Origin: Octopus vulgaris
Taxonomy: Eukaryota
Direction: 5' to 3'
DNA: 64,000 nt
Assembly: GCA_951406725.2 (NCBI GenBank)
Contig: OX597817.1
Coordinates: forward strand, 4,960,001-5,024,000
The first letter of the stretch is position 1; each line of letters starts with the position of its first letter. Below are positions 6,300 to 56,839 of the stretch, one piece after another. Under the pieces are notes generated by a model that was given only the letters and a program-made list of their open reading frames with translations, searched no databases and was not told where the DNA came from. The position numbers were made by a program, and so were the translations under genes.

Positions 6300-6900
6300 T
6301 ACAGAAACAGTAAATAGAATTATACTGAAGCAGTAAATAGATGTGGTGTGGCTGGAGGCAGGTGTTTTACTGAACATGGAGAATAGAATCAGTATACTCC
6401 AATTTACCAAACTGCACCAGCAGAACTGGTGGGTCCAAGGCATGGAACTCATTATACGGGCCACACAAAAAGACCTCGAAGACATACCAGACCAGATTAT
6501 TCTACCCAACGAAACCACATTAAGAGTAATGGTGGAGGAGAGAAAATTTCGTTTTTATAAATATGGGCAAATGTGCCCCCTCCACCCAGCAAACCTACAC
6601 ATGTTGAGACCATAGAAGAAGACACAGAGCTGCCAGCCAGCACAACGCCGAGGAGGCCCACAATCGAAGCCCCAAGAAGAATAGCGAGGGAGCCTGAAAG
6701 GGACGCACAAGAGAGTGAAGCCATCCATAATGATTGGAGAGTTATCAAAAAAACGCAAAAGAAAAATACATCCCCCATACATATAAACATCACAGACACC
6801 CATACATCCGCACTCACTACACACCAACCCCAAACACCCATCCCAGTACCCACAAACACAGTCATCAATGTTACAGCAATTAACATTAGCAACGCCACTC
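6300..6900 (+). mobile_element. Possible non-LTR retrotransposon ORF1/gag-like remnant
   Basis: LRVMVEERKFRFYKYGQ resembles a decayed V.VEGR.P.C..CG zinc-knuckle entry, followed by Pro/Thr-rich low-complexity sequence. Confidence 0.35.
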
Positions 6901-6904
6901 AATG

Positions 6905-7560
6905 TCTATAGATGGGTAGAGTGAAACTACTCCATACTACCTACTACACAACCTGTGAAATCGTTGGAGTGGTTGCGACTTCTGATTCTATTCAGGAGAT
7001 CCTCCGTACTCACATAGACATTCTGGGACACTTCAATGAGTGGTTGTAGCACCCGTGAAAGGAAGTAGGATAGCCTGTAATTGTTGAAGATATTTAACTC
7101 TGAAAACTCGCCAGGTTGGGGGCCCCATAACAGGGTTTACGTATGGTTTATGGTCCTTACGTAACCCGCATAACGTAGGGACATCGTTGTTGAATGCTTG
7201 GAAATTTTTTTGCAGTCCGTTCCTTGGGTTGGAGTATGTTGCACCACATTCCCATGTTTCCATTGAAAAGTTTTTACACTCTTTCATGTTTCTGTGGTGC
7301 AATTTCTCTCATGCTTCTGATGTGTCGTTGCATGGTCTGGACATAGTTTTGTAGGATGTCTACCGACAGTCTGCCAGACTTGTCCGTTTCGAGGCACACT
7401 AATTCTTTGTTCCGTATTCACTGTTTCCCTGAGTTTTTAGGTCCTCCCTCATTATTTTTTTTTAGTTGTTTTGTTATAGCGGTCTAAGATGTTTCGGAGT
7501 CTATTTCTAGCTCACGAAATCTTTGCCCCTGTGTCACTGTCAGTCTTAGGTAGGATACAT
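6905..7560 (-). pseudogene. Penelope-like element reverse transcriptase remnant (N-terminal RT motifs)
   Basis: Frameshifted minus-strand translation: ELVCLETDKSGRLSV..NY, VPTLCGLRKDHKP...GPPT, YRLSYFLSRVLQPL..STEDLLNRI and VVGSME*/SLYPSID (cf. PLE S.DV.SLYPSI). Confidence 0.85.
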
Positions 7561-8055
7561 AACCTTTTGTTGAATGGTAAATCTGTTGGGTAGATCCTCG
7601 TTATGTCTTATGATTTGTTGTTGAAGTTAAAGAAGACAGTTGTGGTTGTTGCTATCAAGGTTGCTGGCATTGTTGTTGTTGTATTCTTCTTCTTTCCAAT
7701 CAGGACCCACACCATTAGCCACAAAGAATAATCTCTAATTCGAGCCTACTCTAAGCTACTAAGAATGCGTGTGGCAACTTGAAGATGAACTCACCACACG
7801 CGATAGACTGGCGGTTGCACGGGCGCGAAAGCTACGTTGTTATTCTCATTCCGTAAACGGTGGCTTTAACGGGTGGAGAGCTGAACCATCCTGGGGTACA
7901 GATGATTCGCAATCTAGACTAGGGTCGGAAAATTTACCACACCATAATGGGTTACACCATGGGTCTCTGTTTTGTGGCAGAAGTAGGAAGAAAGAGTGAG
8001 AGAAATCTGTGGTGAAAGAGTACAACGGGTTCACCCCACCCCTCGTCTTACAACC

Positions 8056-42482: not shown

Positions 42483-42877
42483 CTAGCAGTATCGCCCGGC
42501 GTTGCTCGGGTTTGTAAGGGAAATAATTATATAAGCATTTTTAGAGATGTAAAGTATAATAGCCATCTCAATATGGCTAACCACAAAGGGGGAGGGGTGT
42601 TACTGTAGCTTTTTATCTTCTGAGATTTAATAATAAATTTTAGAGAGTTACTTCCCTTATATATGTCAAAAATGGATTAAAAATGGGAAAAATTGATGGT
42701 AATTTTTTTTTTAAATCGTAGACTCATCGTAGACGCGCGCTAATACCCAGACGGGCTCGATATGAATCACGACTATAAGATACCCGGTTTTGGTTAAACT
42801 GCACCGCAAAATGTGGGAGTAGTTAGGAAACTAAATCGTAGGAGACAGACACACAACCTCACTTTTATATATAAAGA
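42483..42877 (-). mobile_element. Complete non-autonomous Helitron (type B)
   Basis: Minus strand a|TCtttatatataaaagtg...cccgagcaacgccggg hairpin-cgatactgCTAG|t; inserted between A and T without TSD. Confidence 0.9.
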
Positions 42878-42971
42878 TTTCCTCTATTTACATAATATTG
42901 AGGTCTCTTTCTTTCTTTTGTTATCTTACTGTTTTTACCAATATACATATATATATATAAATATATATATA

Positions 42972-43294
42972 GTTACAGAGATGTACTTGCATAGCAAGTG
43001 ACTTGATCTGAGATCGTGTGCTTAAACGAAAACAGTTGCAGCGTTGAAGGTGTTTATAAGCCATTTAAGAAACACACAAAAACCGTTAGATTCACTTCAA
43101 CATTTAAATTTAATTTGCCAAAATATTTTCGTCGCTTTGAGACCGCGACCTGTTAGCACGATATTTTTGTCAGTGAACAGGTCGCGGTCTCAAAGCGAGG
43201 AAAATATTTTGGCAAATTAAATTTAAATGTTGAAGTGAATCTAACGGTTTTTGTGTGTTTCTTAAATGGCTTACAAACACCTTCCACGCTGCAA
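42972..43294. mobile_element. Fold-back element in (TA)n with G3:C8 HHR-like motif
   Basis: Inverted arms 43036-43154 and 43176-43294 with a 21-nt spacer; TA tracts on both sides. Confidence 0.75.
43166..43216 (+). ncRNA. Putative minimal type I hammerhead ribozyme, G3:C8 core variant
   Basis: Stem I TTTGTCA/TGGCAAA; core GTGAACA(G); stem II GTCGC/GCGAC (intact in the left arm, GCGAG in the right); GAA; palindromic stem III AATATT; predicted cleavage after T43209. Confidence 0.6.
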
Positions 43295-43374
43295 TATATA
43301 TATACACACATATATATATGTATGTATGTATGTGTGTATATGTGTATGCATGTATGTGTGTGTGTGTGCGTGTC

Positions 43375-43590
43375 TGTGCTTGTGATTGTCCTCCACCACT
43401 GCTTGACAACGAATGTTGGTTTGTTTACATCCCTGTCACCTAGTGGTTTGACAAAGGAAACAGATAGAATAAGTACAATGCTTAAAAAAATAAAACTGGA
43501 GTTGATTCATTAAACTACAATTCTTCAAGGCATTGCCCCAGCATGGCCACAGACCAATGGCTGGAAAAAGCAGAAGAATAAAAGAATACA
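43375..43590 (+). mobile_element. 3' half of the 17197-type SINE, diverged
   Basis: ctgcttgacaac...gatagaataagtac...ccagcatggccacag...aagaataaaagaata. Confidence 0.7.
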
Positions 43591-43653
43591 TTCTCTGCTT
43601 TGGTCTTATGTTCAAGGCATGAGAAAGCTTGAGTTTACATGAGAAGGCCTAAC

Positions 43654-43905
43654 AGACCTGGTAGAAACAGCAGCCAAATCTCCCTCAAATCACACCTTAC
43701 TGTCTTATGTATGTATATATATATGAGCCAATGAGGGGGACCTCTACATGGTAGCTAGACCTGGTAGAAATAGCAGCCAAATTTCCCCCAAATCACACCT
43801 TACTGTCTTATCTATGTATATATGTATGTATGAGCCTATGAGGGAGACCCCTACATGGCAGAAATAGCAACCAAATCTCCCTCAAATCACACCTTACTGT
43901 CTTAT
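43654..43905 (+). repeat. Three tandem ~100-bp units sharing agaaa.agca.ccaaat.tccc.caaatcacaccttactgtctta
   Basis: The core occurs three times, separated by TA/TG microsatellite. Confidence 0.85.
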
Positions 43906-43949
43906 GCATGTATATATATATATATACAAGCCACTACGGTTATTTAATG

Positions 43950-44402
43950 TAAAGTCTTCCTCAAATCACTCTCTTGCTATTTACTCTCTTCCAAGAATAT
44001 TTTCACTCACTCTTATCTCTTAGCTTGCCATACATTTTACTCGTGTATCTATCAGCGTCATAGACAGAAACAAATATTACATCGCCATCGCCATCGCATT
44101 CTATTGTCTACCTGTCAACACACACACAGTGAATTAGTTTCAGTTTATTCGTTGCACACTGTGTGTGTGCGTGTGAGTGTGGTGTAAACCACATTAAGAA
44201 AAGCATTTGACATACACACCAGAATGTGAGTTTTCTGTAAATTTTGCTTAATTGGAGTTTAAATTTTAAAAACTGGACCTGGCATGACTCGATGCATTCT
44301 TCTCTTAAAAATGCTAGGTAAATTGTAATTGAAGAAATCCTATATTGTAGATTTCTATAACTGACAAAGGGAGGCAGATAAAATCTGCCTTTTATAATAA
44401 GA
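43950..44402 (-). mobile_element. Helitron-like 5' segment (type A), fused directly to the CTAG end of the neighbour
   Basis: Minus strand starts TCttattataaaaggcagattttatctgcctccc; homologous to 45800-46198 and 46224-46621. Confidence 0.75.
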
Positions 44403-45038
44403 CTAGCAGTATCGCCCGGCGTTGCTCGGGTTTGTAAGGGAAATAACTATATAAGCATTTTTAGAGAGTTATAGCCAAAGAATAGCAAAAAATGCATTAA
44501 AAATGGAAAAAATATGATGGTAAATTTTTTTTAAATCGTTGACTCATCGTAGACATTTTTAGAGAGTTACTTCCCTTATATAATAGCGAAAAAATGCATT
44601 AAAATGGAAAAAAAACGATGGTAAATTTTTTTTCAAATCGTAGACTCATGTAGACGCTTTCTTAGCCATTTCTGTTTTGGTGTCTTCAAGCCATGAAGTC
44701 GTTGTTCTAAAAGAACACTGGTCTCCTTGACAACGCATTACGACGTTGATTTCCTTACACTCCCTTCCCCACAGGTGCAGGTGTGAGCGTGGACGCCAAC
44801 TCCGCCGCCATCGACACACGAATAATTATGCATTAAAATGGAATAAAAAATTATGTTAAATTATTTTTAAAATCGTAGACTCATCGTAGACGCGCGCTAA
44901 TATTCAGACGGGCTCGATATGAATCACGACTATAAGCTACCCGAATTTGGTTAAACTGTACCGCAAAATGTGGGAGTAGTTAGGAATCTAAATCGAAGGG
45001 GACAGACACTCATACAACTACAGTTTTATATATATAGA
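44403..45038 (-). mobile_element. Complete non-autonomous Helitron (type B, longer variant with internal repeats)
   Basis: a|TCtatatatataaaactg 5' end at 45038; same hairpin and CTAG 3' end at 44403. Confidence 0.9.
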
Positions 45039-56436: not shown

Positions 56437-56492
<56 letters not shown>

Positions 56493-56495
<3 letters not shown>

Positions 56496-56839
56496 AAAAT
56501 AGTAAAAAGTGAAAAAACTACAGGAGGCTTGTTTTAAAAGGTTAAAAAATATATTTCAGTCATTATGTCGGAAGATAGTTATAAATTTTTTTCATACAGT
56601 GACATAATTTTTGAAGAAATTACCGGTTTCGTGTTAACTTTTCAAATTTGAAAAGTTAACGCGAAACCGGTAATTTCTTAAAAAACAATGTCACTGTATG
56701 AAAAAATCTTATAACATTCTTCTGACATAATGACTGAAATATATTTTTTAACCTTTTAAAACAAGCCTTCTGTAGTTTTTTTCACTTTTTACTATTTTCT
56801 ATATATTCAACCACGTGCTTTCACACACCAGCTTTCTCA

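Follow-up and report, generated by a model that had tools for sequence, protein, structure and literature searches.

A putative G3:C8 minimal hammerhead in a probably Helitron-carried copy of a Penelope-like element of Octopus vulgaris

The window, a stretch of 64,000 nucleotides of the Octopus vulgaris genome (contig OX597817.1, positions 4,960,001 to 5,024,000), contains a fold-back insertion that lies between two (TA)n-type repeats and is embedded in a larger mobile element (Table 1). The inverted repeat, first described in a first-pass annotation made from the sequence alone, is real: its arms (43036-43154 and 43176-43294) are 119 nt long and 97% complementary. The same annotation let the fold-back start at 43036; the insertion begins at about 42972, since the left arm bears a 62-nt tail. 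The sense arm begins some 6 nt within the usual 5' boundary of its repeat family and runs through a hammerhead motif to the first 10 codons of an open reading frame (ORF; ATG at 43266, the start being seen in the tandem copy L293, see below). The left arm ends at A6 and is therefore without a complete core on either strand.

Table 1 Features of the fold-back locus, in window coordinates
Feature	Position	Strand	Remarks
Composite non-autonomous Helitron-type element (by terminal motifs), fold-back as cargo	42483..44402	-	Shared flanks and boundaries, 30 loci
Shorter inner element within the carrier	42483-42877		
(TA)n-type repeat, left target flank	42941..42971		Window sequence
Inverted 5'-truncated arm	42972..43154	-	Broken at core A6; 91.5% to parent over 177 nt
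Optional ~62-nt tail of the left arm	42972-43035		
Sense arm, piece of Penelope-like pseudo-LTR	43155..43295	+	No tail; 91.5% to parent L284 over 130 nt
Putative minimal type I hammerhead, G3:C8 core	43166..43216	+	Window sequence, family state
Stem I	43166-43172 with 43210-43216		7 bp, one G-U
Core GTGAACA	43173-43179		G3 = 43173, C8 = 43178
Extra G directly after core	43180		
Stem II	43181-43185 with 43195-43199		G10.1 = 43181, position 11.1 = 43199
GAA box	43200-43202		G12 = 43200
Stem III palindrome AATATT	43203-43208		
U17	43209		Predicted cut after 43209
(TA)n-type repeat, right target flank	43295..43320		Window sequence

The hammerhead motif and its carrier

The letters of the motif, as given in the earlier annotation, match the window sequence exactly, and the pair at 10.1-11.1 is, as it had noted, intact in the left arm only: the left arm has C at 11.1 and the right arm G, which leaves the window copy with a stem II of 4 bp. 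The motif forms a three-way junction in which stems I and II adjoin the core without a gap, and it carries U4, G5, A6 and A9, G12, A13 and A14, the A15.1-U16.1 pair and an H at 17. In place of the consensus C3 and G8 it has G3 and C8, which make a Watson-Crick G:C pair. Every testable feature of the minimal hammerhead is present except the identity of these two bases. A descriptor with a 7-bp flush stem I, a 6-nt palindromic stem III and positions 3 and 8 left free matched the window once, with a mean of 0.01 matches in 100 dinucleotide shuffles (one of the 100 had a match); the motif is not a product of chance. Standard searches do miss it, as had been predicted: Rfam found no hammerhead in the window at the gathering score, and none in a copy of the parent element at E up to 10, where the repeat unit gave four unrelated chance matches.

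Two further cores in the window had been cited as U3:A8 and C3:G8. The first, at 56648, is indeed a clean U3:A8 core; it belongs to the fold-back at 56484-56801, a member of a U3:A8 Penelope-like family with an ACCGGT stem III and the same type of insertion. The second, at 385, has CTGATGA and GAAA boxes within a fold-back at 240-445, with U-U at 10.1-11.1; its 5'-side complement lies 11 nt beyond the cut site, which prevents a flush stem I, and a differently wired motif is possible.

The element that carries the fold-back ends, on the minus strand, in TC at 44402 and in a hairpin followed by CTAG at 42483, termini that we take to be of the Helitron type. Helitrons have a 5' TC and a 3' hairpin with CTRR, and insert between A and T. 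These terminal features recur across 30 loci, with some ends missing or out of range, and by its terminal motifs the carrier appears to be a Helitron-type element. A query with the 140-nt right half of the fold-back gave 856 candidates, of which 40 were scored and 35 proved to be exact copies, and all 30 copies that we read share the same fold-back and about 1.9 kb of common flanks. The 10.1-11.1 pair is broken in the window copy and in its 34 exact twins. Among the first 30 loci that keep stem II intact, six are themselves carrier copies; the C-to-G change at 11.1 therefore dates from within the carrier lineage, which is what one would expect of an unselected passenger. The window copy itself is only a passenger.

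Two observations concern the carrier more generally. In five of the 30 carrier copies (window position 43118; L002, L003, L005, L011), the left arm has the stem I variant of the right arm, which suggests either conversion between the arms or one event in a sublineage. In addition, a second Helitron-type element (44402-44960) adjoins the carrier head to tail, and this junction recurs in several carrier copies.

The repeat family and its parent element

We searched the 2.8-Gb genome for the motif with an intact stem II and found 2,884 exact matches, against none for the reversed control. Among 86 copies of a longer pattern with another base at position 3, C8 was kept in 77, C3:G8 occurred in none, and U:A or A:U in three. 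G3:C8 is the state of the family, and the annotation's reading of GTGAACA as its consensus stands.

Outside the carrier, the family unit measures about 205 nt and consists of a fixed 5' boundary about 20 nt before G3, the hammerhead, a further 85 nt and, in some copies, a tail of about 60 nt. Across 131 loci, a set that includes one duplicate locus (L276/L284), we counted 68 inverted pairs, 61 solo units and two loci without a long arm. Exactly one tail was present in 64 of the 68 pairs, none in one and two in no case, and three were ambiguous. The inner breakpoints outside the carrier were scattered between unit positions 2 and 151, and the (TA)n-type target recurred in many independent copies. 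An inverted 5'-truncated partner with a tail at one end only is a feature described for Penelope-like elements (PLEs) (Craig et al. 2021, PMC8557442; cited papers are drawn on in part, here and throughout). The insertion in the window is such a pair, its left arm tailed, its right arm without a tail and (TA)n on both sides. The fold-back is thus the ordinary footprint of an inverted PLE insertion and not part of a ribozyme design.

The parent element was found through two widely spaced inverted pairs with an ORF for a reverse transcriptase (RT) and a nuclease between their arms. Two other routes were abandoned: a Pfam GIY-YIG search yielded other PLE families, and the sequence past the tail in L119 proved to be a different repeat. 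A protein search recovered many parent copies that are 95-100% identical, with open frames of up to 1,025 aa. In 22 of the 23 ORF-bearing loci (two of them duplicates of other loci in the set), the GTGAACA hammerhead lies 0.95-1.25 kb past the nuclease domain, and its stems are perfect in nearly all; in L284 the motif falls at 6423-6500. In the tandem copy L293, the unit flanks the ORF on both sides, in the manner of the partial-tandem, hammerhead-bearing pseudo-LTRs of PLEs; the ORF opens with MAYKHLPRC inside the unit, 57 nt after the predicted cut, and runs through the tail. The unit is therefore the pseudo-LTR and ORF start of a PLE.

The single parent ORF contains RT motifs, a CxxxCxxC linker and two Cys between the VYQ and YIG motifs, that is, the RT and C-terminal GIY-YIG nuclease with CCHH motif that characterise PLEs. 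Its protein is 21% identical over 667 columns to a Pfam-positive RT and GIY-YIG protein of the same genome (BLASTP E 2e-10) and has 102 homologues in public data; a Pfam search at E up to 0.1 gave no match of its own. The parent is a young autonomous PLE with an RT and a GIY-YIG-type nuclease. Its short zinc-finger linker, compared by eye with alignment rows, suggests a possible place in the Nematis clade. Nematis and Neptune PLEs likewise have a C-terminal GIY-YIG-type nuclease, a CX2-5CxxC linker and (TA)n targets, as well as the one-tailed inverted pairs described above (PMC8557442). Despite its Nematis-like short linker, the parent reaches only 21% identity to the Neptune-like family of the genome, and it has a long RT insert. 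A decayed ORF remnant of a parent-related PLE, at 28-45% identity, lies elsewhere in the window (6895-7634, minus strand).

Just before the unit, the parent has a branch-point-like CTAAC, a pyrimidine tract and AG, and 48 of 102 arms begin at the unit's 5' boundary, right after this AG-ending stretch. Intron-free copies keep the AG in 25 of 43 cases, and in 15 of those 25 a G precedes it. The boundary would agree with a splice junction or with the capped start of a transcript. Contigs from four presumed RNA runs, inspected outside the repeat stretch, showed no splice junction. Short copies (L058, L060 and L085, compared with L284:6400-6425) start with AG-ATGCAG, with the extra G in the same 15 of 25; this G may be a cap copied by the RT where transcription starts, or may mark a very short first exon.

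Pairing of positions 3 and 8 across families

The covariation argument of the first-pass annotation had been made from three unrelated repeats; it holds in homologous elements and in families found by leaving positions 3 and 8 free. All 14 family-level motifs pair Watson-Crick at 3:8 (five C:G, five U:A, two G:C and two A:U), with a permutation p of 7e-7 that assumes independent families, whereas the families are related and two of the motifs were read by eye. The value overstates the case; several separate double changes are still needed. U4, G5, A6, A9, G12, A13 and a non-G at 17 are present in 14 of 14 motifs, partly by the design of the descriptor. Other PLE families of the same genome have hammerheads in the same place with U3:A8, C3:G8 or A3:U8. 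Genome-wide, a pattern with positions 3 and 8 free gave 1,684 matches, against one for the control, and among 30 of these that were read, 28 were Watson-Crick at 3:8 (18 A:U, nine U:A and one G:C).

We identified a second G3:C8 family (L209, L295-L313), tied to Neptune-like nucleases and unrelated to the first, with an 8-bp stem I and an ACCGGT stem III. Here, G3:C8 occurs in 18 of the 21 motif matches, and U replaces the conserved A14 in seven of the 21. This family sits on a separate branch of a 30-row nuclease tree, on which the G:C label needs two changes (bootstrap range 2-2) and U:A and A:U likewise two each, with labels that were assigned by eye for L094 and L096 and by family for L305 and L310, and that may be mis-linked for L203 and L224. 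Parent homologues, with 44-47% and 33% protein identity, have C3:G8 (L461, L459) and U3:A8 (L462) just after the ORF. These are the three with a readable hammerhead among 10 metagenome homologues, the rest being cut short or having none visible; L461 was found by descriptor, and L459 (U15.1-A16.1) and L462 (a stem I mismatch) were read by eye. The conserved pairing at 3:8 across families suggests that the cutting shape is kept by selection.

The survey also brought to light several variants. The hammerhead of the parent homologue L459 (4965-5020) combines U15.1-A16.1 with a palindromic stem III, and family B includes a U4C subfamily. Neptune-like PLE families (L111, L215, L212 and others), in hundreds of copies, have an A3:U8 core and a stem II of two base pairs. 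One inverted pair (L205/L206, G000:C1:7828096-7828240) has U3:A8 in one arm and A3:U8 in the other, against one shared sequence background. Finally, a young Neptune-like PLE with many intact 781-aa ORFs (L121:745-3087) has a U3:A8 hammerhead, with stems that appear degenerate in the youngest copies. Core changes such as A14U and U4C are tolerated in some lineages.

Cleavage, alternative readings and known relatives

Predicted folding of solo units agreed with the hammerhead, with pairing probabilities of 0.65-0.98 for stem I and 0.99-1.0 for stem II, mostly above 0.9. All pairs of the six-base stem III are A-U; the minimum-energy cofold of two units is not the dimeric hammerhead. For the fold-back in the window, the long hairpin is 66 kcal/mol more stable than the hammerhead fold. 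The window copy is probably inactive, because its stem II pair is broken, the modelled hairpin is favoured and the left arm has no full core.

Truncated genomic copies offered a view of past cleavage, limited to products that were reinserted. The 5' ends at the predicted cut were not enriched: about 37 ends without stem I microhomology, as against roughly 31-46 at the two positions used as controls. At the cut site, all 62 matches were read and binned by script into 38 ends, 16 stem I microhomology joints and eight continuing sequences, with two or three mis-binned as judged by eye. For control +2, we read 55 of 273 matches, from the first 100 places, and counted 15 ends, the rest being mostly a subfamily with a 2-nt insertion; the genome-wide estimate is about 38-46 ends before allowing for a looser filter. 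For control +9, 30 of 85 matches were read, with 11 ends, or about 31 genome-wide. Of the 102 arms, three start at the cut site, two of them via stem I microhomology.

This result fits the reading that the hammerhead-shaped fold is kept at the 5' end of PLE RNA as a signal for protein binding or folding, in which 3:8 pairs for the sake of shape and cleavage in vivo is negligible. The 48 arms that reach the 5' boundary point the same way, as they imply uncleaved RNA as their template, and so do the A14U and U4C subfamilies. In the anole element, moreover, uncleaved RNA is the main substrate and no RNA-seq ends fall at the cut (PMC11167929). However, the anole PLE hammerhead does cleave when supplied with protein (PMC11167929), the truncation test detects reinserted products only, and the core residues and the non-G at 17 are kept in every family-level motif, although partly through the descriptor. 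We consider this reading unlikely, though not negligible.

Much harder to sustain is a relic, that is, a lost ribozyme whose G3 and C8 drifted in by chance along a master lineage. The broken 10.1-11.1 pair of the window copy and its twins, together with the decay of genomic family copies by about 5-10% per site, would agree with it. Against it stand 3:8 pairing in all 14 motifs (7e-7 on the assumption, which does not hold, of independent families), several double changes that arose separately on the nuclease tree and the perfect stems of the youngest ORF-bearing copies; we regard it as very improbable. It is barely credible that the fold-back is an independent MITE or hairpin element whose arms form a hammerhead look-alike. 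In favor of this reading, 35 of the 40 scored copies match the 140-nt query without a difference, and the fold-back is the same in all 30 read. But these copies share their flanks and their TC and CTAG ends, breakpoints outside the carrier are scattered, solo units make up 61 of the 131 loci, and an RT-bearing element has the unit as its 3' end, which refutes the reading as the origin; the fixed terminal inverted repeats and length, target duplication and unrelated flanks of a MITE were not found. A non-LTR retrozyme, known as head-to-tail tandem arrays of 150-400 nt units that each carry a type I hammerhead (bioRxiv 10.64898/2026.07.22.740005), was also rejected, as the 131 loci are solo units or inverted pairs, two without a long arm, and show no head-to-tail arrays.

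We favor, as the likely reading, that the window holds a decayed, Helitron-carried copy of a PLE pseudo-LTR, and that this pseudo-LTR encodes a putative minimal G3:C8 hammerhead that would cleave slowly, as a dimer or aided by the PLE protein. In the mechanism that we propose, the PLE nuclease would nick the two strands of an AT-rich target, and the RT would start at two sites about 55-60 nt apart; the resulting pair of cDNAs, both extended towards the 5' end of the RNA, would join head to head into a fold-back with one tail. One RT start per strand would give one tail per insertion, as in 64 of the 68 pairs, and the one-tail rule offers a clean genomic read-out of two-strand, two-start priming. 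A Helitron would later have taken up this insertion with its flanks and spread both, after which the hammerhead would have begun to decay (C11.1 to G). In the RNA of the parent, the G3-C8 pair would give the 2'-OH of residue 8 the position that it has in C3:G8 ribozymes, and stem III would form between two units through the six-base palindrome. Selection on the active-site fold would act during PLE replication and not on genomic copies. Cleavage is predicted to be slow, as a dimer or helped by the element's protein.

Short PLE-associated hammerhead variants that cleave as dimers have reportedly been described by Lunse, Weinberg and Breaker (RNA Biol). A review likewise covers PLE-associated hammerhead variants with a reduced stem III and dimer cleavage (PMC6765202). 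The minimal hammerheads of metazoan PLEs are also of type I and lie in the pseudo-LTR (Cervera and De la Pena 2014, PMC4209133). Like the octopus motif, they have an additional nucleotide that follows A9, a G10.1-C11.1 pair and a palindromic stem III, and they too are dispersed as truncated copies that number in the thousands, some of which form pairs on opposite strands (PMC4209133). They cleave weakly, even as dimers (PMC4209133). The 56 representatives of that study are C3:G8 except for two U3:A8 and one U3:G8, with no G3:C8 or A3:U8 listed; its descriptors were fixed to those cores. A natural compensatory 3:8 change, as in the octopus family, is known from Perreault et al. 2011 (PMC3088659), in the form of U3:A8 only. 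Natural U3:A8 is thus already published (PMC3088659, PMC4209133), whereas G3:C8 and A3:U8 are transversion pairs, absent from the account of core variants in PMC3088659 as far as it is used here.

The closest experimental system is PAc, the Poseidon element of Anolis carolinensis (Frangieh et al. 2024, PMC11167929). PAc likewise has a hammerhead near its ORF start and AT-rich targets, and in vitro both strands are cut and extended, with two RT start sites bounding an optional tail, as proposed for our family. It differs in that its ORF starts within the ribozyme and not after it, its tail is 30-40 nt as compared with about 60 nt, and Poseidon lacks the zinc-finger linker of the octopus parent (PMC11167929). 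G3:C8, the natural state in the octopus family, is in PAc an engineered double mutant: C3G/G8C partly restores its hammerhead, which needs the PLE protein, and hammerhead mutants left insertion in vitro unaffected (PMC11167929). In a full double-mutant scan, G:C was the sole 3:8 swap to rescue activity, whereas U:A and A:U stayed low (PMC9901934). By these data, G:C is the swap with the most bench support, and the natural A3:U8 families are more surprising than G3:C8. Within the literature searched, which is of partial coverage and in which colon and subscript notations are unsearchable, G3:C8 occurred only as an engineered pair and A3:U8 in no natural case. The natural G3:C8 PLE hammerhead thus appears new as to its core pair; as a sequence feature it is real and supported by covariation, and its cleavage is predicted.

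A wider reading, which we hold tentatively and at slightly less than even confidence, is that the PLEs of this one genome have explored all four 3:8 pairs (G3:C8 twice independently, A3:U8 in families of hundreds of copies), and that all are catalytically competent within the RNP of the element. The consensus would then be N3-U-G-A-N-N8-A, with only pairing required, and many such motifs would be invisible to CUGANGA or UUGANAA searches. The corresponding change to search descriptors is to leave positions 3 and 8 free and require that they pair. These candidates bear on the question of whether the feeble minimal hammerheads of PLEs are selected as catalysts: the 3:8 pair exists only in the active three-dimensional fold, and repeated double changes at it are the strongest sequence argument for a selected geometry. 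The octopus families offer natural G3:C8 and A3:U8 candidate ribozymes together with a young cognate protein. If the wider reading is true, hidden PLE ribozymes would also be present in elements that have been scored as having none.
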